A DNA stretch of 63,548 nt, the filler included, from Welwitschia mirabilis (Eukaryota): assembly GCA_051453625.1 (NCBI GenBank). It is 7 parts of one record of this genome, joined end to end, with 100 filler letters (N's around TTAATTAATTAA, not from the genome) between each part and the next. Parts side by side here need not be neighbours in the genome. Positions count along the whole stretch, not along the records: positions 1 to 24,082 come from JBOZIK010000001.1; 6 more parts are not named here. One strand, written 5' to 3'. Of the stretch, positions 4,501 to 56,000 are shown in pieces. The notes beneath the pieces are model-generated. The model had not been told where the DNA came from, did not search any database, and was given only the letters and a program-made list of their open reading frames with translations. Both the position numbers and the translations under genes were made by a program. Numbering within the stretch: position 1 is the first letter of the stretch; each line of letters begins with the position of its first letter.

Positions 4501-5725
4501 TATTAGATTACTTCACTAATCAGAGGCTACCCGAAAATTTTTCCTCATTATAAAAGAGAAACTTTAGGGATCAAGAAATACATTTTACCTAATTCAAGGT
4601 CAGTTGTATAAGAAGTCAAATAAAGGTATCTTGTTAAGATGCATAAAATCAAGTAAAGCTATTTATGTCCTAAAAAAAACCCATGCTAGACTATGTGGAT
4701 CCCACCAAAGGGTAAAATCATTATTGGGTCATATGTTACGGTCTAGCTATTTCTGGAAAATAATGAACAGTAACTATTTTAAAATAGTCAAAATGTGTCA
4801 TACTTATCAAATGTTTTTATCAAGAATACATCAACCGCCTACTGATCTTTTTCCTTCTGATCCAATTTGGGTTTTTAGAAAATGGGATATGGATTTAATC
4901 AACCTATTACACCTGCCTCATCAGGCCAACATGCATTCATCCTTACTACAAAAGAATACTTTTCTAAATGAGTCAAAGTAGTCTCATTATGGTAAACAAC
5001 ATCAAAGCAAATTCAAAATTTCATTCTTGATCACATCATTGCTAGATTTGGCATATCTTATGTCATTGTCACTGATAATGGTCCACAATTCAAATCATCA
5101 AAATTGAAAAATTTCTTGAGTAAATTTGGGATAAAACACTCCTTTTTGATACCAAATTATTCTCAAGCAAATGAACAAGTTAAAACTACAAATAAGTTGA
5201 TCATAAATTATCTCAAAAAGCTCTTACAAAGGAATACCAAATCATGGCATAAGAAATTACCTTTAGCATTATGGGCTTACCATACTACAATAAAACTACT
5301 ATACGAACAACACCATTTCAACTCGTCTATGGTACTAAAATAGTCTTGCCCACTCAAATTCAGATCCCCACATTAAAAACACTAGTTAAGGATTTAGAGT
5401 TATCTGATATGAAAATGGAAAATCAAATTACACAACTAGAAACTTTAGATGAAAAACGGATAAAGGCCTTGCAATAAAACCAACTTTATTAGAAGCGAAT
5501 CAGTAATGCATATAATAAGCATGTGAATCTAAGATCTTATGATATAGATAAATTAGTGTTAAAAGCAAACTTAACTAAAAAGACTTCAAAGTATTTACCT
5601 AATTGGTTAGGACCATTTGTTATCTCACAGAAGTTTAACAAGGGAACATACAAACTAAGGAGTTTACATGGCATTGAAGAGAATGAACCGATAAATTTGC
5701 TATATCTTTGACCTTATTTTCATTG
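1585..5725 (+). pseudogene. Tat/Ogre-type gypsy pol, copy A2: protease tail, A-rich spacer, RT, RNase H, aRH, integrase; degenerate
   Basis: RT motifs WLSNMVVILKKNGQIRIYIDY, GYNQI and YVDD (3107-3118). RH ~3540-3900, second RNase H ~3960-4340, integrase HHCC/core ~4600-5400, GPF tail (PNWLGPF). Many stops and frameshifts. Confidence 0.92.
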
Positions 5726-5825
5726 NNNNNNNNNNNNNNNNNNNNNNNNNNNNNNNNNNNNNNNNNNNNNNNNNNNNNNNNNNNNNNNNNNNNNNNNNNN
5801 NNNNNNNNNNNNNNNNNNNNNNNNN

Positions 5826-8038
5826 TCTAAAAATCAATGAATAATAACTATTTTAAGATAGGTAAAATGTCTCATACTTGTCAGATCTTTTCACTAAGAA
5901 TGCATTAACTGCCTACTCATCTTTTTTCTTCTGATCCAATTTGGGTTTTTAGAAAATAAGGTATGGATTTAATTGACCCTATTATACCTACTCATCAGGA
6001 TAACATACATTTATCCTTACTATAATAGAATACTTTTCTAAATGATTTAAAGTAGTCCCATTATGATAAACAACATCAAAGTGAATTTAAAATTTCATTC
6101 TTGATCACGTCATTGCTAGATTTGGCATACCTTATATCATTGTCACTGATAATGATGCATAATTAAAATTATCAAAATTCAAAAATTTCTTTAGCAAATT
6201 TGGGATAAAACACCCTTTTTTGACACCACATTATTCTTAATAAAATGGACAGGCTGAAGCTACAAATAAATTGATTATAAATTATCTCAAGAAATTCTTA
6301 CAAAGGAATACAAAGTCATGGCATGAGAAATTGCCTTTAGCATTATGAGCTTATTGCACTACAGTAAAAACTACTATAAGGACAACACCGTTTCAACTCC
6401 TCTATGGTACTAAAGTAGTCTTCCCTACTCAAATTCAGATTCCCATATTAGAAACACTAGTTATGGATCTAGATTTATCTAATATAAAAAAGGAAATATG
6501 ACTTATAAAACTTAAAACTTTAAATGAAAGACGACTAAAAGCCTTACAACAAATCCAACTTTATCAAAAGTGAATCAGTAATGCATACAATAAGCATGTG
6601 AATCCAAGATTTTATGATATAGATAACTTAGTATTTAAAGCAAACTTAACTGAAAAGAATTTAAAGTTTTCACCTAATTTGTTAGAACCATTTTTCATCT
6701 CACAGAAGTTTGATAAGGAAACATACAAACTAAGAAGTTAAATTGGTATTGAAGAGAGTGAACCAATAAATTTGCTATATCTTTGACCTTATTTTCATTG
6801 AAATAAAGTTCCAAAAACATGTTAATTTTGTTTCATGTTGCAATTTAGTTGTTTTCATATTTTCATTTATAAGTGTGCCTAATATACATTGGTTCTCGTG
6901 TAAAACTTTTCTCGCATTGCATAAAGCCTACATTTTGATTTCTATATGTGAAGTTCAGACTATGGCTGATGATTATCCTTCATCCTTTTCTCATTCTTTT
7001 TGAAAGGAATATGCTGCTTTTCTTTGAGCATAATGCTAATGCAAGGAAGCACCAGACTTTGCTGTTATTAACATTCCATTCTATGAGGCCCCAGTAATGG
7101 AAGATGATGATGACGAAATATATCACATCGATCCATGCTATGATCCACCTAATCCTTTTTGGACCATGATTCATACCCTTGCATGATCCTTCTTATTCTA
7201 TACACTTGCATATCACCATCGTTATCCCACTAGATAGTAGTGGATACATGTTCTCGCCTATCATGCATTTCATCACACCCTTCATCCATTAGTACTACCA
7301 TATTTATACCATTTTTTTTATACCCATCATATCACTATTTCGTCATACCTATGTTACACTTTTAAACCTCTCACTTATATTTTATTTTTCAAAAAAGAAA
7401 AAAAAGATATAAAGCAGGAAAAAAAAGGGGGAAAAAAGGAAAAAAAAGAGGAAAAAAATTTCCTTTTCACTTCTTTTATTGTACAGCCTGTTACATACAT
7501 ATTTATAATAAGTTAACTTCTAAGTGACTAAGTCTTTATCTTATGGAAAAGTGCATTTTTGATGACTCCATTGAGCTTCTTAATTTAGATACCTTGAGAA
7601 CCTTAGGGTTGATGGAAAATAGTTAGAACTATATCAGTTAATAATTGATATGTTATTAGCAAAATAGAAGTAATTGAGTAGGAAGTTCACCTAAATTGAG
7701 AGATATAATTCCCTTCACCTTTAGCTAAGTGACTTCTTAGCATCGTTTCTTGATTAAGATCATTTTTTTGTTCAAATCGTCTATTTGTTTAATTTCTTGT
7801 CAAATCACATTCGAGTTTCATTAAAGTAGTTCTCTACTTTTGGGCATTTATAGTGGTAAGATTGGATTTCACTCAATCTTGAGATATTTCCATATCTATA
7901 GCCTCTCATGTCTCAAGTTATTCAGTATTAGCATCAATTGTGTCAAATCTGATGCTTATCTTTAACTGTGAGCTTTATAATTTATCATTCTAGTGATTAA
8001 GCAATGTTCAAAAATAAAAGAGAATCCAAGCCACGCGG
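5826..8038 (+). mobile_element. Tat element copy A3: integrase (stop ~6801) plus 3' UTR
   Basis: 5826-6801 aligns to integrase 4755-5725 with many substitutions. 7070-8035 aligns to 10660-11600. Confidence 0.88.
6962..7186 (+). pseudogene. Small acidic extra ORF (~74 aa) in Tat 3' UTR, copy A3; interrupted by in-frame stops
   Basis: ATG at 6962, 3 nt after CAG. Reads MADDYPSS...INIPFYEAPVMEDDDDEIYHIDPCYDPPNPFWTMIHTLA*. Same frame and C-terminus as 10554-10784. Confidence 0.6.
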
Positions 8039-8138
8039 NNNNNNNNNNNNNNNNNNNNNNNNNNNNNNNNNNNNNNNNNNNNNNNNNNNNNNNNNNNNNN
8101 NNNNNNNNNNNNNNNNNNNNNNNNNNNNNNNNNNNNNN

Positions 8139-10369
8139 ATCAACCCTTTTACCTTTACCTTGCATGCATACCATCATCACTCAGTGCAATGATTTTTGAA
8201 TGAAACAAGTTACACTGAGATCACCCCATTTATTATATCAGTAGAATACTTCATCAATATGAGAAAAATTACACCAAGGTAGAGAAAGCATGTCTGAGCT
8301 TAGTCTTTGCTTCACAGAAGTTTCACCACTACATGATAACAAATAAAACCATTGTGATCAATAACCAGAACTTGCTCAAACATTTACTTGAATATTCTAC
8401 TAGAAGTACTCATCTAACGAAGTGGAAATCGATTCTCGCTGAGTTCAACTTAAAATTTGAATTCCAAAAATCTGTCAAAGGTAAATGCATAGTTCAACAG
8501 ATAGTGGATTTACCAGTAGAAACTGAGAATGAAATCTTAGATGAATCTAAACAATTTCTAGATGAAGAAATCCACTTTGTCAAAATCAAAAAGGACTATG
8601 ATGCATTAATGTTCTTCGATGGTGCATCGAATAGAAATGGTGGTTTTGTAGAAGTAGTCTTCTTTTTGAGTAATAAAACAAGTTTATCATTCTTCTTCAA
8701 ACTAAAGTTTTCTTGCACAAATAACATTGTCAAATATGAAGCCTTATCGAGAGGAATAATCCTTGCCATTCAAGTTAATTTCAAGAGTTTACGCATCTTC
8801 AATGATTCACAGCTAGTAGTAAACCAAGTGTTGGGTAAGCACAAAGCAAAATCGAAAGTTTTAAGTCTTTACCTTAAAAAGGTGAGAAGATTACTTTCCA
8901 CATTTGACCCTTATGAAATCCTAGGCATCCCAAGAAGTGAAAATCAATTCATCAATTACCTTGCATACTTTGCTCAAACTTGTTTCAAGGATTCGTCATT
9001 TAAAGAATTTGTCACGTGTGTAGATGTGAATCAAAATTTTCTAGTTGAATAGCTAATGATAGCCTATTAAGAATTACCATGAGATGAGGTAAACCAACTA
9101 GTAAAAGATCCTAAAACAATCAATGAATGGTATGACACATTAGTAAATTATCTCATAAATCAAAAGCTACCAGAAGCTTTTACCTCTATACAAAGATAAA
9201 ATTTTCGTGAACAAGATACGCATTTTACCATAATTCAAAGCCAGCTGTATAAGAAATCAAATGATGGCATCTTGCTTAGATGTCTAAAGTTAGGTGAAGC
9301 AGCCTATGTTCTAAAAGAAACACACGCTAGTTTGTGCGGTCCCCACTAAGGGGCAAAATCATTATTGATTCACATTTTAAAATCGAGTTACTTCTAGAAG
9401 ATCATAAGTTACGACTATTTTAGGATGGTAAAAACCTGTCACACTTGCCAAATCTTTTCATCTAGGATACATCAACTGCCTATTGAACTTTTTCCATCTG
9501 ATCCTATTTGGGCATTTAGAAAATGGGGTATGGATCTAATCGGTCCAATTACACTGACTTCGTCTGAATGACATGCTTATATTCTTACCGCAACTGAATA
9601 TTTTTTGAAATGGGTAGAAGCAGTACCTTTACATCAAATGACTATAAAACAAATCCAAAAATTTATCATGAATTACATCATTATTAGATATGGTACTCCT
9701 TATATCATAGTTAGTGATAATAGTCCACAATTCAAGTCTGTCAAGCTAAAAAACTTCTTGACTAAATTTAGAATAAAACATTCCTTCTCCACCCCACGTT
9801 ATCCACAAGTAAATGGTCAAATTGAGGCAACGAATAAAGTAATCAGAAACTATCTTAAGAAATTATTACAGAAAAATCCCAAATCATGGCATGAAAAATT
9901 ACCCTTTGCATTATGGGCTTACTGTACCTCAATAAAAAGTGCTATGGGAACAACTCCATTCGAGTTAGTTTATGGTACTAAGGCAATTTTGCCAACTTAA
10001 ATCCAAATTCCTTCACTGAGAACCTTGGTTAAAGATCTTGAATTATCCAACATTAAAAGAGAAGAATGACTCACTCAGTTAGAAACTCTAGACGAGAAAA
10101 GAATAAAAGCACTGCAACATACACAACTTTACCAAAAATGAATGAGTAAAGCATATAATAAACATGTCAATCCATGATCATACAATATAGGTGAACTCAT
10201 CTTAAAGATAAACTTAACTACGAAAACCTCAAAATTTTCATCAAACTGGTTAGGACCATTTCTTATTTCACAAAAATTCAATAAAAGAACATACAAGCTC
10301 AAAAGTCTGGACGACGTCGAAGACAAAGAACCCATAAAGTTATTTTATCTTTGACCATATTATCAATAA
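8139..10369 (+). pseudogene. Tat pol copy B: RNase H, archaeal-type RNase H, integrase
   Basis: ORF 8333-9052 has DALMFFDGAS...CTNNIVKYEAL...IFNDSQLVVNQV (aRH). ORF 9605-10000 has KWVEAVP...IVSDNSPQF...YPQVNGQIEATNK (integrase core). Confidence 0.93.
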
Positions 10370-10553
10370 ATTTCAAATTTGCATCTTTCTGTGGAATTTT
10401 AACTGTTTGTTTCATACATTTTTTATTTTTTGTTACCATCTTAGTCATGCTAAAATGCGATGCATCTATATGGCTACTAGTTACTTAGAATAGCATTTTC
10501 TTATGTGTCATATAGATTTCACGTTTTTTCTCTTTGTCTGAGTTTTACAGATC

Positions 10554-10784
10554 ATGAGTTACCATATACTTCAACTTCTGACACGGCTAAATGTTGATGA
10601 TCCTCTTGAAACTTCTACATCTGGCAGACATTATCCCATTCCTTAATAAGCTTCCTTGATTGACATTCCTTTTCACGAGGCTCCTCCTATCGAAGACGAC
10701 GATGATGATGATGAGATATATTGGATCGATCCATGTTATGACCCACCTGACTCTTCTTTGGTTATGATTCGCACCCTTGCATGA
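10554..10784 (+). pseudogene. Small acidic extra ORF (~76 aa) in Tat 3' UTR, copy B
   Basis: Pyrimidine tract and TTTTACAG end at 10550, ATG at 10554. Reads MSYHILQLLTRL...PIP**ASLIDIPFHEAPPIEDDDDDDEIYWIDPCYDPPDSSLVMIRTLA*. The two stops are TAA TAA, plausibly from CAA CAA. Confidence 0.62.
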
Positions 10785-12602
10785 GCCTTCTTATTTTACA
10801 TATTTGTATATCATCATCGTTGTCCCACTAGACAATAGTGGATACATGTTCCCGCCTGTCATGCATTTCATCACACCCTTCATCCATTACTACTACCATA
10901 TTTATACCATTTTGTTTATGTCCATTATATCACTATTTCATCATACACATGTTATACTTCTAAAATATTATTTTCAAAATAAAAAAAAAGAAAAAAAAGA
11001 GAAAAAGAAAAAGAAAAGAAAAAAAAAATATTTCCTTTTCACTTCTCTCGTTGTACAGTCTATTACATACCTCTTTATAATAAGTTAACTTCTAAGTGAC
11101 TAAGTCTTTATTTTGTAAAAAAGTGCATTTTGGATGACTCCATCGAGCTTCTTAATTTAGATGCTCTGAAAACCTTAAGGTTAATGGATAATAGTTAAAA
11201 CTATGTCAGTTAATAATTGATATGCTATTGGCATGATAGAAGCAATTGAGTAGGAAGTTCATCTCGATTGAGAGATGTGATTTCCCTTCATCTTCAGCTA
11301 AATGACTCCTTAGCATTGTTTCTTGGTTAAGATCATTTGTTCAATCATCCATTCATTTGATTTTGTGTTAAATCATATTCGAGTTTCATTAAAGTAGTTC
11401 TCTACGTTTGGGCATTTACAATGGTAAGATTGGATTTCATCCAATCTTAAGACATTTCCATGTCTATGACCTCTCATGTCTTAAGTTATTCAGTGTTAGT
11501 ATCAATTGTGTCAAATCTAATGTTTATCTTCAGCTATGAGCTTTACAATTTATCATTCTAGTGATCAAGTAATGTTCAAAAAATGAAAAGAGAATCCAAG
11601 ATAATTGGTCAAAAAAAAAGAAAACAGAAAAAAATAAGAGAGAAAAGAAAAAAAAAATCATAATGTTCTACCATAAGCGCACCGGGGCAAATATTCCTGA
11701 GAGGGGCCTTTGACAGTGTGATATGGTAGCTGTAGAAACTCCACCAGGGTGTCAATTGGTCATGATCTGGCTTTGGCTTGAGGACCCTTACACTCTTGGT
11801 AGTGGTTGCACTCCCCTCATTATGATAAAAGTTGTTCTTTAAACACCCCATTGGCTTGATTTTCCCACGACTTCGAAGCTATGACTTCATGAGCATTCAG
11901 AACATCTTGATCATTAGATGATAAGTAAGAAGGTCTCACTCCTTATCGTAGCCAATGATTAGATTGAGTTATAGTCTAAACACTACATTGATACTTTGTA
12001 GAATAATCATAGGCATTGTCATAACCATTTCCCTTATCACATGATACTCTATGTTAATTAACATTAAACCACTATGCTAATGACATCGAACAATTTTATG
12101 ATTCATACCAATAGACTATGCTAGGTTAGTGTTTAGAGGTGTAGAAATCAATCTTCTTTATGTCCTATTTGTCCATTTTCATTTAATCTTTTCTTGGTGT
12201 TTATGATTAATTACCTCAAAATCATTATTGCATTTACTCTTACTTACTTAAGACTAATCCCACTTTCTAGTTAACTTATTATCTTTTGGTATCCCTCTCT
12301 TTTACTACTCCCTTTACTATCTTGTAATGTGGTGAGAATTTATTTCTTAATGTCATCACCTCTTTTGCTTTGTTTATCATTCTCCTATACCCTAGCTTTC
12401 CTTTACCGTTTTCGTGATTATTGTCAAATATTAATCATCATTCTTTGTCTCCCATTTTTTCTACATCTTATCACTATTTCTTTTTCTTGACGTCTTACCA
12501 TCTTATCATCTCATTCATCACTCGTGTCATTCTTCAATACTCTCCAAACAAGTACATGATCATTTTCGACATAAGGCTCACCTTTTCCCCTCACCGCATG
12601 TC

Positions 12603-12616
12603 AAAAAGGGGGCAAC
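12603..12616 (+). promoter_or_regulatory. Polypurine tract of Tat element
   Basis: AAAAAGGGGGCAAC lies immediately before TG at 12617. Confidence 0.8.
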
Positions 12617-14189
12617 TGGACCAAGCAGTGCACACTCCTAGGCGCTGCCTGTCTAAAACAGTCTACAGGCGGTGGACAGTGCTATCGACTGCCAGGGTGG
12701 CACCAGAAAACAAGGCGCCGCCAAGAAACACACTGTTAAAGAAAACCACAGAGCACAGGAAGGAGGAGGAGGGGAAAGAAAATGGAAGTGCAAGGAGAGA
12801 AGCTGAGAGAGAGGGAGATCGGTGGAAAACACGAGAGGCTCTGCAAAGCAAAGCTAAAGAATGCGAGAACTCTGCAAAGTAGAGAACAGAAAGGGGAAAA
12901 CAAGAGGAAGAAAAGGGAAGCCACAAAGGATAGCAGCGAAAACAAACACGAGATAATGAAGGGCAGCAAAAAGCGAAAACGGAGGGGAAAAGAAAAGAGG
13001 AGAAAACAGCAAAAGGAAGAAAACAACGTAGCAGAAAACAGACGCACAAGGAGAGATGCGCAGTAGAACAGAAGAGCGCAGGAAGCCAGGTTTTTTTTAA
13101 ATTTTTTTTCCTTATTTTTGTTTTTTATTGTTTTTTTATTTTTATTTTAAAAACAAAAGAAAGTTTTTCTTTAAAGAAAAATAAGAAATGGGCAATTTAA
13201 ATTTTCTTTTTTTTGTTATTTTTAATTTACTTTCACAAGGCATTTTTATTTTTTTTTAATTTAAAAAAAGAAAAAAGGATCCATTGAAATAGTTTTTTTA
13301 AGTTATATGTTTACAAAAGTTGTCTTTAAAAGCTATTAATTAGGATTTAAAAACAAAATTTCTTGTTAATTTTAAATTTTTTTCTGAAAATAATAAAAGG
13401 ACTTTCCTTTTTTTTTCGTTTTTTCCCAAAAAAAAACCAAAAACAACGAGTAGTCATTCAATTTTCTTTTTCCTTTAAAGTTATACTTTTTTTTGGTTTT
13501 TAAGAAAAGAAAAACAAAAATTAAAAAAAAAATAAAAAAGAACTTAGGAAAATATTTTTTATTGTTTTTTAATTTAAAAAGAAAAAATCTTTTTATTTTT
13601 GAAATCGTATTTAAAACTTTGCCTTTCTTTAATTGTAGCCTTTAAATTTAAAGTTCTCGTAAAACCGAAAAAAAATTTATATTCTGAAAAAAAAAGTGTT
13701 TTATTGGATTAGCATTCGTGTTTTTTTATTTTATGCATTTAAATTTTCGCCAAATGTAAACCTTTTTAGGCCAAAATCGCACAAAATATTACGACATCAG
13801 ACCAAAATAGTCAATCTTAGTCAAATTCAATCAAACCATAACGGTCAAAGTTAGCCATACTCAGTCAAAGTGAGTCAAAATCAGTCAAACCTAGTCAAAC
13901 TGTCAAAGCACAGTTAAACTCGGTCAAAACATAACATTCAAACTTAGTCAAACGGTCAAACAACGGTCAAAGTCAGTCAAAATGAGTCAAATGACATCAG
14001 TCAACATAAGTCAAAGTTAGTCAAACACAGTCAAATGTAGTTAAATTTAGTCAACTCTAGTCAAACTAGGTCAAGTCATTAGCTTTAGCTTAAACTAGCT
14101 TAAATCGTCATCAAACCACCAAAGTTACCTATCATTGAGTAACATTAGAACTAATCCACTATTTACAGGAGATAAAAAGCTCGTAAACA
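12617..14189 (+). repeat. 3' LTR of Tat/Ogre-type element (~1.57 kb)
   Basis: Starts TG right after the PPT; likely ends ...GCTCGTAAACA at 14189, where sequence character changes. No second LTR is present to confirm the end. Confidence 0.7.
13809..14074. repeat. Degenerate ~10-bp tandem array of RGTCAA (reverse complement TTGACY, W-box)
   Basis: 20 RGTCAA hexamers counted, e.g. tcagtcaaag tgagtcaaaa tcagtcaaac ctagtcaaac. Confidence 0.9.
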
Positions 14190-15280: not shown

Positions 15281-18200
15281 AACTAAAACTAAAATAAAAT
15301 TAAATGTTTATTATGTCTAAAGACCCAAAGGATCTATTGGACAAAGGAAATGATTATGTCATAGAATACAAAGATAGATTCAATAAAGTGGCCAACAACC
15401 ACTGGATGTAATATGCAGTGATATTGAATTGTTTTCTTATAGGTTTTGTAGTAACAAAAGAAAAAAAATAAAACATATTCTACATCTTTAAGGGTGCTTA
15501 GATTACACAATTTGCAAGTTTGTTCTTCTATGGGAATGCTATTCCATCTTTCACTTCAATTCTGAGATGATGTGAACTTAATTAAACTTTGCTAATAAGT
15601 TTATATGTCTTTATTGGGATTTTTGCTGTGAGATAGTGAACTGGTGAATCAAACTAATTATGGCAAATATGCTCAAAATAAAACTTCCTCTTGCCTTATA
15701 TATTTATCCATAATTTTATTAGGACATGATTCTTGAGGACACTATAAATCTTAATGGAATTGGTTTGGAAATTATCCCAAGAAGTATTTCTTTTTTGTAT
15801 CCACTACATTTCTTGAAAATACTATCCTTTCTCTTTTGTAACTTAAAGAACTACTCTTGAAAATTTTAGTTACTATGCTTCCATTAGTTTTAAAGTGTAA
15901 GTACAAAACTGACACATGGCTTTGACTTCAATAGGAAAAATATCACATTCTAACGACATTATAAGTTACAGTGTTTGAATTCTTACTTTAATTTTATCCA
16001 ATAATAACAATTTTTGTACTCTCTTAATATCTTTTCAATTTCTTTCACTGATATATGGCCCCCAAAGTGGGTATCCATAAAAAATAGTGGGATACACGAT
16101 GGATTAAAAAAACTTATTTATAAACTTGTTAAGCCCAAATCCCCAGTGAACTACATTTATTTTTTATAGTATAAAAAGCTTTAATTCAATCTTCTATCCT
16201 CTCTTTAATGCATTAATCACATCTATAAGTATTAGAGTAACAAAGACCCCAGTATTGAAAAGTTTCTACTATTTTAATTTTCTCCCTATTGATTTTAAAG
16301 TCAAATTAGGTGTTCTTGGTGCCCTAAATAATTAATTTAGATTTTTTGGTATTTAGTGTCAAACCATAGGATTGACAAAAGTTTTCCAATTTTTGAAGCA
16401 TGTTTTTCATACTTGTCTTCAAAGTAGAAATTAAAGATGTATCATCTCCATAAAGGAGTAATTAAACTACTAATGATAATATCTTAACACCATAGTAATT
16501 ATGTTCTTTACAAAGTTAATCTTATAACTCCTAAATGAAGAGAGCAAAGAGTGTTGGAAAGAGAGGGCATTCCTATTTACTTCTATTATAGAATAAAATT
16601 TAAAACATCTTTGTTGATTGAAGTCTTATATTTTAATTATAACCTCTTTATGTAACCTATGAACAGTAGCAAGATGATTAGGAGAAATTCCAATATCATT
16701 AAGCCGCATCCATAATTTGGTATGATTCACTGAATCATAAGCTTTAGAAAAATCAATAAAACAAAGAAAAATTTTTTCGTTTGGCTTTTTTGCAAAATTT
16801 ATACAATGCCTCAATGTAAGAAAATTATTAATAATGAAATGATGTTGGTGTAAATCTACTTGACAAATCGTTTTGATATGATTTGCTTTTGCCCACTTAC
16901 CAACCTTCTATTCAAGAAGTGTGCCAAAAAGCTTTACAAAAACATTACTTACCACTATCATTCTATAACTATTTAGATCATTCTTATCTCCTTTCTTAAA
17001 TAGCAAAATTACCTTACTTGTTTCCCATCCCTGATTTAATCTGTTTTCCATTGTAAAATTCAGTTTTTTAAAATTTTTTTGTGAATTAAATTTCTAGCCC
17101 ACTTAATTAGCACAACATATAAACCAGTTAAATCATGGAATTTTCATTACCTAATCTATTAATGCCAGCTAAAACTTCTTCAAATGTAATTTGCAAGTAA
17201 TTTTGATAATTAACGATAAATTTTTTCTCACTTATATCTGAAAAAAGATTTTTGTAAAAATCACATATTGCAGAAAAAGAGAAATTTATAGTTAAGGATT
17301 TTCAATGTTAGAAAGAATTCCAAAATTTCTTTGGGTTCTTTTCGATCATACAAATGAAATATTCTTATTCATCTTTAATAAGCTATCTCTTTTTACTTAT
17401 AACAAGGCTTTTGTATCTTTTTCTTACTACTTCCCTTTGATTTCTATCTATTATTTTAATATTTCTCTTTGCATTTATTCATTCATCATTAAACTAGGAA
17501 TTTTGAGTGCATTCATTTTTTCCTTTAAAAGTTTCAGCAGTTTCATTCAGTAAAATTTCTTCAGAATTTTTAGTTTATCTTTGAGATTATCATAGACTTT
17601 TTTTAACTAATTTAAATTCTAATTTTACCTTCGATCTTATTCTTCTTTAATTCTTTTTCTTTTTTTGATTATTTATCTTATGCAAATTTAAAGTAATTCC
17701 TATCACAAATTTCAAATGATGATGAAATGATTCCAACAAATCATTACCTATTTCAAATCCTTCAGAGACTATATTCCTCAAAAGAAGAAAGAACGAAATT
17801 AATACATGAATTTTCTTTGATCCTTGTTATTACACTACCAACTTACATGTATTTAATAGGGTATTCTGAGTTGTTTTACAGGTAAATTAGCAGATAAATG
17901 CTTAGTTCTCATGATAATGAAGAACTGAGATGAAGAGAATGAAAACATGTCATTTCCACTTAAATTATAAGCATTTTGTGTAGATATGGATAAATTATAT
18001 TTTTTATAATAATTCCTACAAACAACAAGTGATCATATTGACTAAAGATTGAAAAAAAGCCATCATCCACCTTATTGTCCAGACGTCAATAGCGGATGAC
18101 ATCTCTAATAGGGCAATAACAAGTTTACATATCCTACACAAGCAGTTAAACTAGGAGCTAAATAGATATCTGATTATCACTCTTTGTCATCTCCTCCATC

Positions 18201-52933: not shown

Positions 52934-53033
52934 NNNNNNNNNNNNNNNNNNNNNNNNNNNNNNNNNNNNNNNNNNNNNNNNNNNNNNNNNNNNNNNNNNN
53001 NNNNNNNNNNNNNNNNNNNNNNNNNNNNNNNNN

Positions 53034-56000
53034 TGAACCTTTACTTCATGAAAATCATTTCTCTTTCTTCTCACCTAGTGCCTTTGATGGATTTTAACAT
53101 TTAGGTCCTGTCCCATCTATATTAGTATGTTGTATTTGTATATATATATTTGTGATTAATAGGATTTGACTAAGGATGTAACATTTTCATAAATACACAC
53201 TGTAATATCTTGGCACCATTACTAGGGAAGGCCGTAATAATTTTGAGGATTATTGTTACCCAAATAAGTGCTTTGGATTTCAATTTAAGTATTTATTTGT
53301 GGTAGCATTGTATTTTTACTATAAATATTTTAGTTTTTCCTTTTGCCTTTTGTTTTTTTCTTTTTAATTTTTTGTTTTATATTTTTTGAGCCTATCATCC
53401 TATTTGTTTTTTAGATGACACATGCGAACAATGACCTAGGGTTAGGATTTTTTGTTATTTTTTTATAGTTTTTTTTAAGTTTTCTGCTGCATAATAAGCC
53501 AATACCATCTCCTTTATCATCTGGATGACACTGGAAGATGACTAACAACATGTTTATACTTGGTTTTTGGTGATTATCTTTTCTATTTTATCTATATTTT
53601 TTGGTTTTTTTTTGTTTTCTAGTCATCTAGGATATTTTCTAGATAATGAATAAGACGATAAATAGGCAAACATTTTATTGAGCATGTAGGGATGTGATAA
53701 AATTTGGTAAAAAGCTGAAATATCTGAGAGAATGAAGTTTAATTAGAAAAATATCAGAAAAGGCTTACTTGATAAAAAATAGAATACAGATCACACATCC
53801 CAGGTACATAATTTTCAAGATTTAAAGAAATTTTTTCTATTTTTTTGTGATTCTAGAATCAAAATTTTCAAATAGCAGTGGTGAAAATAATAGAATAGGA
53901 GAAAAATCATTTTATCCCCTTCTTATTAATGAATAGTATTGTTTCAAAACATGATAGGACCCTCTAGTTCAAATAAAAATATTACGGTAGGAGATATAAT
54001 GACTAGAAGCAGACATAAAAGAGAAAAAGCTTGTAACTTATCTCCTAATGATGATTTACAACTTAAAACTGAGAATTCTTCTTGTTCATCCCTCCCATCC
54101 ACTACTAGAAATAATGATAAAAAACCACTATGAGAAATTTTGGCTGAAATGAGAGCTAATAAAATGAGGAGAAAACATAAAAGTTCTAATAATAATGGAA
54201 ATAAAACACTTAGAGAAATATTTCAAGAATAATTCTGGGGAACTTCAAATGATGTTGAAACTATGATTCCTTCCTCTTTTTAAACTTATTATTTTTTCCC
54301 TCATTCTTTTCAAACATCAAATGAAAATGACATAGATGATTTACAACATTTTAGAGACTTCATCTCATATAGTAAAACATCCTACAGTCATTTTTGTTAA
54401 TTCCAATCATCTCCCATGAATCATTCTGAAGAATAACCATCTTCCGTAAGTTATTATGAAGAACAAACATCTCCATCCATTATGTTGAAGAAGAAAGATC
54501 TATCTACCACAAGTTACTATAAAAAACGAAATAAATCAGCAACAAAAATGCTTAAGAAAATGAAAATGAGGCAAGAAAATATCAACAAGAACTTAGAAAA
54601 TTTGATAGGAATATTTCAATAAAATTTATTACAAATTCAAAAATTTCAAGGTTCTTTTATACAACAAATCTATCCTACTACATTCCACTTTGAAAAACAT
54701 GAGGAGAACTTTAAAATAACAAGTAACAATAATTCTTGCTTTAATATAGAAAATGAAAGTATGGATCAACCTACAACACTAAATTTATTAGGAGATGGAC
54801 AACAAAAGAAAAATAATGATGATTCAAATCTATTATTTATCAATAAGAATGAATATGATTATTTCTCAGATGATAAGCTAGGTTATAACCCTGTTTAATT
54901 CCTATTAGAAAATAAAGATGAAATAAAAGAATTAACTCATGAAAAATCTAAAAATTCATTAATCCATGATAAACATAATGATCACATTTCTCGTTCTAAT
55001 GAATCTAACGAATTTTAAAAATAATAACATGAAACAAATAATGAGAATGGTAAATAAGACGATGATGATGATTATATTAAAATATTAGATCATATCCCTG
55101 ATTTTCACTTACTTTGTGATGAGGATGAAGGAGTTCAACCTTTAAAAGAAGTTCAACATATGAGATCAAAGGAGAATTTAAGTAATGAAATAGAATCAAT
55201 GGAAAATTTACATTATGAAGGGAGTCATCCACCCCTTTTGTCTGGACGACAGTCCACAACAACAATATGTAATAGCAACTCAAAAACTAAAAATAAGGAT
55301 TATAGTTTAGAATTAATAGAATTATTCAATAGAGAGGAAGAAGAATCAACTCAGGAAATATCAGAAAATCTTCCATCACATAATGAAAATTTTTCTTTCT
55401 ATGCTCTTTTTAATGATCTTTTTGAGGAATTCACCAACTTAAAAAATGAAAATAATCCTTAACAAAATAATAATTAGTTTAATAAAGGAGAGCAAGATAT
55501 AGTCCATTATAATGATAAAGACAATGAAGAAGAGGGAGCTATTATTAAAGAGATAACAAACAAAGTAGAGAATGAATTCAATCAAGTAATGATGAAGTCA
55601 ACAATGAGGAGGAGAGAAATAAATAAGAATATATAGAAAATCAACCAAACTTAATGGAGAATAGACTTATTACTTCCAATGAAATAAACAAACTTAAAGA
55701 GTTTACTCATGCTTCTCCATCACTTTCACTTGTACTTCCATGCAAAATATTAAATGATATCCCTTCTTCTACTTCTACTTCCACATTATCTTGTAATCTT
55801 GACAATGATAACATTTGTATTCCTCTCTCTCAATTGAACATTTAAGTAATTATCCAAATCACATATCTCTCCTTGAATTTAATGAAACACATCATCTTAT
55901 CGAATCTACTCCAAAAATCTCTCTCTCTTTTTCTTTTAAAACTTCTTGTACTACAAAAAGTAACATCTTTTCCTCTTTTACAAAGTCAACTTTACCTTGT

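Follow-up and report, generated by a model that had tools for sequence, protein, structure and literature searches.

Retroelement copies in the window

The DNA analysed here, called the window throughout, is a stretch of 63,548 nucleotides from Welwitschia mirabilis. It is AT-rich (GC 19–34%), and its first 11.6 kb consist of pieces of Ty3/gypsy elements (Table 1). Domains were assigned with Pfam. The ORF at 8219–9052 holds RT_RNaseH (residues 2–76, 8.6e-16) and RVT_3 (aRH; residues 161–251, 6.9e-12), and the integrase core, rve, lies in the ORF at 9572–10000 (1.9e-9), giving the order RT_RNaseH, RVT_3 (aRH), rve in copy B. Within the Tat lineage, an aRH between RH and INT is described as marking the angiosperm Ogre/Retand clades (PMC6317226). 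Because the aRH sits between RH and integrase here as well, the Tat label of the initial annotation holds, and the elements are Tat-lineage (Ogre/Retand-type) Ty3/gypsy elements.

Three integrase ends are present in the window (5535–5708, 6613–6783 and 10178–10351). Past pol only two contigs continue, copy A (5826–8038) and copy B (8139 onward), and searches of the window with blastn and tblastn found no copies of the small frame described below beyond these two. The copy B polyprotein terminates in EPIKLFYL, the same place at which distant Tat polyproteins end. The integrase of copy A is 58% identical to that of copy B (tblastn), and over pol the two copies share 70–72% identity with saturated synonymous sites (pS 0.78). 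The closest relatives of pol, from Melastoma and Gossypium, are just 43–48% identical. There is no second LTR within the window; a purine-rich tract at ~10980–11029 (copy B) and 7395–7470 (copy A) is a candidate PPT.

The 5' parts of the element pieces are interrupted by 100-N gaps. Such runs (1485–1584, 5726–5825, 8039–8138, 52934–53033 and others) are bordered by near-duplicate sequence: 351–1484 matches 1585–2721 at 80%, 4757–5725 matches 5830–6800 at 86%, and 51050–52933 matches 53034–54929 at 94%. The seeming tandem order of the pieces may be a product of scaffolding and not biology. Elsewhere in the window, a 93-codon open frame on the minus strand (16626–16907), reading ...FIDFSKAYDSVNH..., presumably resembles the reverse-transcriptase motif of a non-LTR (LINE) element. 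Downstream of copy B, long open frames overlap on both strands in purine/pyrimidine-rich sequence of low complexity (12418–13146) and are probably compositional. An Rfam search of 9000–14000 gave a single sub-threshold chance match.

Table 1. Features of the two element copies, with positions in the window.
Feature	Position	Strand	Basis or remark
Copy A pol, integrase part	5830..6786	+	ends with TGA 6784-6786
Copy A island: CAG 6956-6958, ATG 6962-6964	6933..6964	+	alignment to copy B
Copy A 75-codon frame	6962..7186	+	translation; 4 internal stops, none beyond codon 26
Copy A conserved core NIPFYEAPVMEDDDDEIYHIDPCYDPP	7067..7150	+	alignment to copy B
Copy A non-coding 3' block	7187..8030	+	alignment; cut by the 100-N gap 8039-8138
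Copy B pol remnant (RH, aRH, integrase)	8139..10354	+	Pfam; TGA 10352-10354
Copy B variable spacer after pol	10355..10524	+	50-55% identity to copy A, gapped; barely alignable
Copy B island: T-rich tract, CAG 10548-10550, ATG 10554-10556	10525..10556	+	weakly conserved
Copy B 77-codon frame	10554..10784	+	translation; broken by TAA TAA 10644-10649
Copy B conserved core DIPFHEAPPIEDDDDDDEIYWIDPCYDPP	10659..10748	+	differences from copy A by codon position; pN/pS (see text)
Copy B tail with TGA, less constrained	10749..10784	+	differences by codon position (see text)
Copy B non-coding 3' block with purine-rich tract	10785..11600	+	83.5% identity to 7100-8030
Antisense ORF, 67 and 70 codons	10587-10790 and 6980-7192	-	longest open frame over the region

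Two small frames behind pol

The initial annotation had proposed a short acidic ORF in the 3' region of the element, opening directly behind a CAG. Both copies carry the landmarks on which that proposal was built. An ATG follows 3 nt after a CAG in copy B (CAGATCATG, 10548–10556) and in copy A (CAGACTATG, 6956–6964), and the frames run for 77 and 75 codons, stops counted, to the common end ...TLA-TGA. Copy B reads MSYHILQLLTRLNVDDPLETSTSGRHYPIP, two stops, ASLIDIPFHEAPPIEDDDDDDEIYWIDPCYDPPDSSLVMIRTLA, stop. The motif I[DN]IPF[HY]EAP..EDDDD(DD)EIY[WH]IDPCYDPP occurs in both. The frames are thus present as described, but neither is an open ~75-residue ORF: there are two internal stops in copy B (TAA TAA) and four in copy A (TGA, TGA, TAA, TAA), all of the TAA/TGA type as had been noted, and only the last 44 codons (copy B) or 48 codons (copy A) are free of stops. 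All six internal stops lie in the unconstrained N-terminal halves, which had been called unrelated and which share 28–33% identity against 30% expected. The length difference in the Asp run is 6 nt and in frame, but it falls in a (GAT/GAC)n run, in which slippage gives multiples of three regardless of coding.

The frame was found in two of the two window copies that reach the region, and in RNA and DNA relatives; it is open in neither window copy. It lies on the sense strand after pol and before the 3' purine tract, the position of an aORF-3S. The coding-type pattern lies 305 nt (copy B) and 281 nt (copy A) past the pol stop, upstream of the purine tract, and just ~630 nt separate the pol stop from that tract. 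Of the last 44 residues in copy B, 13 are acidic and one is Arg. No hydrophobic stretch was found in the copy B frame, and the long ORF with transmembrane or hydrophobic segments that characterizes env-like genes is not seen. An AlphaFold (AF2) model of the 44-residue part was without secondary structure (pLDDT 61.5, pTM 0.15) and therefore offers no fold that would support a function; as modelled, this part looks like a disordered acidic peptide and not a domain.

The 3' block

Identity between the copies is 72–78% in the core and rises to 85–93% past the TGA, where it is maintained for at least 800 nt and across the purine-rich tract. Differences in this 3' block amount to ~12% and are spread evenly over the three phases. 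The divergence of copies A and B is thus a mosaic, with pol at 70–72% and the 3' block at 83–93% identity, and the change from one to the other comes no more than a few bases from the stop of the small frame. This mosaic probably arose when subfamilies with a common 3' end or LTR recombined or switched templates.

Related sequences in DNA and RNA

Two DNA-contig runs (X1 and X4) and two RNA runs (X15 and X18, chosen by species label) were aligned to the window at a likeness of at least 80%. This placed 19539 and 17126 DNA contigs, and 389 and 333 RNA reads, respectively; the element family is very abundant. DNA depth falls ~10-fold at 10362–10435. At this likeness the family depth peaks in the bins 10510–10583 (island and ATG) and 10658–10731 (core) and dips in the N-terminal half and the tail.

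Diverged relatives carry the small-frame region in their RNA, in one piece with pol. Reads of these relatives part from the window at 10720/21 (X15, 22 reads; X18, 10 reads), and from 10721 on they are too diverged to align. Their consensus reads Y-H-[V/A]-D-P-R-Y-D-T-T-Y in the same frame, collinear with Y-W-I-D-P-C-Y-D-P-P-D of copy B. The Y, D, P and Y are kept via synonymous changes, and a hand count on the listed consensus gave differences of 6/1/8 at codon positions 1/2/3 relative to copy B. The Cys and the two Pro of the motif are absent from this third lineage, and the comparison reduces the conserved kernel to Y-x-[IVA]-D-P-x-Y-D. In the N-terminal half, an RNA relative compared with copy B over 10611–10640 differed at 5/2/1 sites by phase, again counted by hand.

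In the RNA consensus strings of the relatives, G+C content is far higher than in the window copy. The window copies seem to be aged family members decayed by C-to-T change, and the transcribed ones younger or less methylated. In the integrase, a 3-nt in-frame deletion at position 9949 occurs in RNA only (3 of 29 reads in X15, 4 of 27 in X18) and in none of the DNA contigs. A separate feature of the DNA runs is the 74-nt bin 11398–11471, in which the word depth reaches 142149 and 86798 in the two runs, against ~10000 in the neighbouring bins. Many contigs have loose ends there (at 11402, 11422, 11436 and 11469), and the bin contains a hairpin (11425–11449) with a perfect 11-bp inverted repeat and a 3-nt loop, TAAGATTGGAT-TTC-ATCCAATCTTA. 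This stretch may have been amplified on its own as a short repeat, or it may be a shared module.

Coding signal in the core

Copies A and B were compared by codon phase, and their pol and downstream segments served as controls. Over the last part of pol the differences at positions 1/2/3 were 24/20/55 (~107 sites per position), and in the core they were 4/2/12 (28 sites per position). The tail (10749–10781) gave 3/4/3 (11 sites per position), and four downstream segments were even, with 3/5/4, 5/4/3, 5/5/2 and 5/2/7. The N-terminal half together with the island gave 29/23/27 (~42 sites per position), and in the N-terminal half ~65% of the sites differ in every phase. The synonymous third-position differences reported previously are real in the 28-codon core, in which 12 of 18 differences fall at position 3 (binomial p = 0.004; position 3 versus 1+2, Fisher p = 0.0014). 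The main test comprises two copies and 28 codons in a frame that had been chosen beforehand by the initial annotation; correction for three frames brings p to ~0.004–0.05.

Nei-Gojobori estimates for the core in this frame were pN 0.113 and pS 0.676, corresponding to an omega of 0.07, a value from the two copies only and not near 1. For the pol control, pN was 0.19 and pS 0.78 (saturated). The two other plus-strand frames over the core gave omega values of 0.77 and 1.17, and in stop-free alternative frames omega was 0.8–1.6 throughout. One antisense frame had a low omega (0.18), computed from just 23 usable codons, and this frame has stops inside the core in both copies.

The most serious alternative is that the whole region is plain non-coding 3' UTR, the core being the ragged edge of a cis-acting block before the PPT/LTR and the periodicity a matter of chance and of a (GAT)n microsatellite. 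The similarity does continue through the TGA and is higher downstream, as such a block would predict. However, third positions of the core differ by 43% and positions 1+2 by 11%, next to a non-coding block that differs by ~12% in all phases, and a sequence as young as that block cannot reach 43% at third positions. The core therefore belongs to the anciently diverged part of the element, and the third-position divergence at the border of so similar a block argues that it is held by selection on the protein. Within the GAT/GAC run lie the 6-nt indel and 2 of the 12 third-position differences; with the Asp run set aside, 10 of 16 differences are still at position 3 (p = 0.016). Since 5 of the 12 third-position differences are transversions, they are not explained by decay of methyl-cytosine, and the third lineage shows a like pattern. 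That many frames are stop-poor on the T/C-rich strand, that both copies are broken and that homologue searches were blank (see below) fits non-coding sequence, and on balance we regard this explanation as unlikely, though it deserves to be kept in sight.

The reading that we prefer is that of a coding core. The C-terminal core is supported as behaving like protein-coding sequence, in the frame named by the initial annotation. As judged from these alignments, the phase comparison shows protein-level conservation of ~28 codons across a divergence equal in age to the one between the two pol genes. The same alignments give the motif [DN]-I-P-F-x-E-A-P-x-x-E-D(4-6)-E-I-Y-x-[IVA]-D-P-x-Y-D. Within the core there is no ATG.

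The start island and the candidate splice acceptor

Between the pol stop and the core, the ungapped diagonal of the core gives an overall identity of 31%, where 30% is expected. One stretch stands out, the island around the CAG and ATG, in which 19 of 32 positions are identical and five more differ by transitions; this was reached by 515 of 20000 shuffles (p ~0.03), a marginal value. In the spacer before the island the copies differ in length by 24 nt, with several gaps. The distance from ATG to core is 109 nt in both copies, across ~95 nt of randomised sequence, and this constancy next to a varying spacer favours a constraint on frame or length. The string CAGNNNATG itself is not enriched, with 17 occurrences on both strands of the window versus 21.7 expected; two such sites at an equal 109 nt from the core are nevertheless hard to obtain without homology.

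A pyrimidine tract had been noted before the CAG of copy B. The 30 nt in question are 77% pyrimidine, but against a background of 58 ± 16% this is unexceptional, and in copy A the corresponding value (60%) equals the local plus-strand background. Among the RNA joints and loose ends listed, which begin at 7 reads over a depth of ~22–35, none falls at 10545–10555, where depth is thin and the reads are mostly less than 90% alike. Three listed loose ends (10425, 10610 and 10720) mark homologous sequence that has diverged, and not junctions. RNA depth is continuous from pol (10–20 per orientation) into 10436–10731 and equal on both mate orientations, which could reflect unspliced genomic RNA, read-through or carry-over of DNA. 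The CAG is a candidate acceptor only, and its use in splicing is unsupported.

Splicing could enter in another way. The core could be the last exon of a longer spliced product, either an alternative tail of the integrase or a two-exon protein with its first exon in the unseen 5' part, the N-terminal half then being intron or linker. This would account for N-terminal halves that are unconstrained and hold all the stops, and for a conservation that, the island apart, starts only ~9 nt upstream of a core lacking an ATG; splicing within Tat-lineage elements is also documented for Ogre (PMC6317226). It leaves the conserved ATG at identical distance unexplained. Moreover, pol ends where distant Tat polyproteins end, inspection by eye found no GT donor conserved at the pol end in both copies, and no RNA joint into 10640–10660 is among those listed. 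An acidic integrase tail is absent in 8 of 8 relatives, of which the nearest (43–48% identity, ending ...RYY/F) are too distant to decide. We consider a last exon improbable and a self-contained frame starting at the island ATG the better account of the conserved spacing.

Decay of the window copies

The density of stops in the small frame is that of pol, with 4 in 75 codons versus 21 in 319 for copy A (whose pol has no frameshift) and 2 in 77 versus 10 in 434 for copy B (pol frame 9053–10354), and fits a frame that was open at insertion. Since stops are just as scarce in several non-coding frames (one in the 74–76 antisense codons of this stretch, 0–2 in downstream frames), stop density was dropped as a discriminator. 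At the first letter of the second stop of copy B, another letter is found in 3632 of 3952 (X1) and 3802 of 4147 (X4) of the DNA depth and in 71 of 73 RNA reads; because 92% of the family depth and nearly all of these RNA reads differ, this stop is private to the copy. The first stop of copy B has no entry among the differences listed and may be common to most family copies. Transitions, headed by T>C and C>T, are the commonest differences between window and family, as expected for old methylated copies.

Common indels were taken as those with a share of at least 10%, among those listed. One lies in pol (3 nt), eight lie in the spacer (the last at 10535), and four lie beyond 11334, none a multiple of three; of the 12 entries listed, seven fall within 10355–10524. 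None of the listed common indels falls in 10536–11334. This absence is not specific to the ORF, because the 550 nt of non-coding sequence that follow are equally free.

Homology searches

The initial annotation had recognised no family for the peptide, and the searches agree. Pfam gave no match for copy B and one sub-threshold match for copy A (RAP, E 0.12). Two word-index runs of a 5.8-billion cluster search returned no homologue, near or longer, and a HMMER profile search of 1.84 billion representatives gave two matches at E ≤ 1e-3, both repeat artefacts. The ESM Atlas yielded no usable match. The likeness to retrovirus-style accessory proteins that had been suggested finds no backing here, there being no homologue of any kind in the libraries searched. 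An integrase-based scan of metagenome contigs found only two loci at 26–29% identity, a scan of viral contigs found none, and a 28-nt exact pattern had no matches in prokaryote genome contigs. One match to a degenerate motif in viral contigs was rejected as chance; it sits in a GC-rich phage ORF.

A peptide with no retroelement relatives might be a fragment of a host gene, captured by the family ancestor and carrying a left-over coding signature but serving no purpose in the element; plant LTR retrotransposons are known to transduce gene pieces (PMC7264820). Here no host-like protein was matched, the two HMMER matches being the artefacts mentioned. The synonymous excess arose after the split of copies A and B, and selection therefore acted inside the element lineages, which makes a captured fragment very improbable.

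Comparison with known additional ORFs

Sense additional ORFs between pol and the 3' LTR are known in plant Ty3/gypsy elements such as Athila, Bagy-2 and Calypso, and the env-like ORF of Bagy-2 in barley is documented as being expressed through a splice acceptor immediately upstream of its start (PMC7264820). Such aORF-3S and env-like genes share with the small frame their place after pol and before the purine tract, the sense orientation and their retention in diverged family members. They differ in comprising hundreds of codons and often transmembrane segments, whereas the present frame has ~75 codons, is strongly acidic, and has no hydrophobic segment or predicted fold. In surveys, only ORFs of at least 250 codons were counted (PMC6317226), and because of this requirement the small size class is uncatalogued.

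Ogre, of the Tat lineage, has a spliced intron between gag-pro and RT-RH-INT (PMC6317226). Ogre has in common with the present elements the aRH between RH and INT, and host splicing regulates the expression of its genomic RNA. The Ogre intron lies inside the polyprotein region, however, while here the frame follows pol and no junction is among the RNA entries listed. With retroviral accessory proteins such as Tat and Rev there is an analogy only, that of a small ORF behind pol needing its own mRNA; there is no sequence relation, and splicing and activity of the present frame are hypothetical.

Retand-type elements belong to the same broad clade and likewise have extra coding capacity behind pol, but their extra ORFs are antisense, lie in regions of 2.9–6.6 kb and have a named domain; here the frame is sense and its region is ~630 nt. 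That the antisense ORF of Table 1 is a real gene, as in Retand, Grande and RIRE2, is barely credible: although no longer open frame covers the region in either copy and antisense ORFs are common in Retand (PMC11963269), the variable sites fall on its first codon position, its omega in the core is 1.55, it has no Pfam or other match, and with the other antisense frames holding stops no constrained antisense gene of the Retand type (TRP28) is seen.

Discussion

The explanation that we favour, with a probability of roughly 0.55, is a small extra ORF in sense orientation, now decayed, of a Tat-lineage family, with a ~28-codon acidic-aromatic core that appears to have been under purifying selection. 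The frame would be a small extra gene between pol and the polypurine tract or 3' LTR of an abundant Tat-lineage (Ogre/Retand-type) family, its core flanked by randomised sequence upstream and by non-coding sequence downstream. The case consists of two dead copies and a few read consensus strings, and makes a good lead, not yet a discovery. Of the accessory-peptide reading in the initial annotation, the coding-like core in the named frame stands, with a pN/pS close to that of pol and residues kept by the third lineage; a homologue that would give it a known counterpart was not found in the libraries searched.

In live elements, translation would start at the ATG 109 nt before the core and read through a fast-evolving, unconstrained N-terminal half. 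The predicted peptide, ~75 residues long, would be disordered and strongly acidic, and its acidic-aromatic core might serve as a short docking motif for a basic partner. This partner might be a nucleic-acid-binding protein of the element itself, or a host factor involved in chromatin or transport. An ORF behind the long pol ORF needs an mRNA of its own. In the most speculative step of the scheme, genomic RNA would be spliced onto the CAG 3 nt before the ATG, which we take to be the likeliest route; an internal transcription start may serve instead. The full proposition, that the abundant family encodes an accessory peptide of ~75 residues from spliced RNA, disordered and with a hypervariable N-terminal half, whose conserved motif docks onto a host or element factor and aids amplification, is tentative, and we would sooner expect parts of it to fail than all of it to hold.

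Most of what is known about additional genes in plant LTR retrotransposons concerns long ORFs, either env-like or antisense. If the reading is true, small extra ORFs of this kind would be invisible to surveys that require at least 250 codons, and a short, protein-constrained acidic motif behind pol would represent a small accessory factor or docking peptide that aids a highly successful element.
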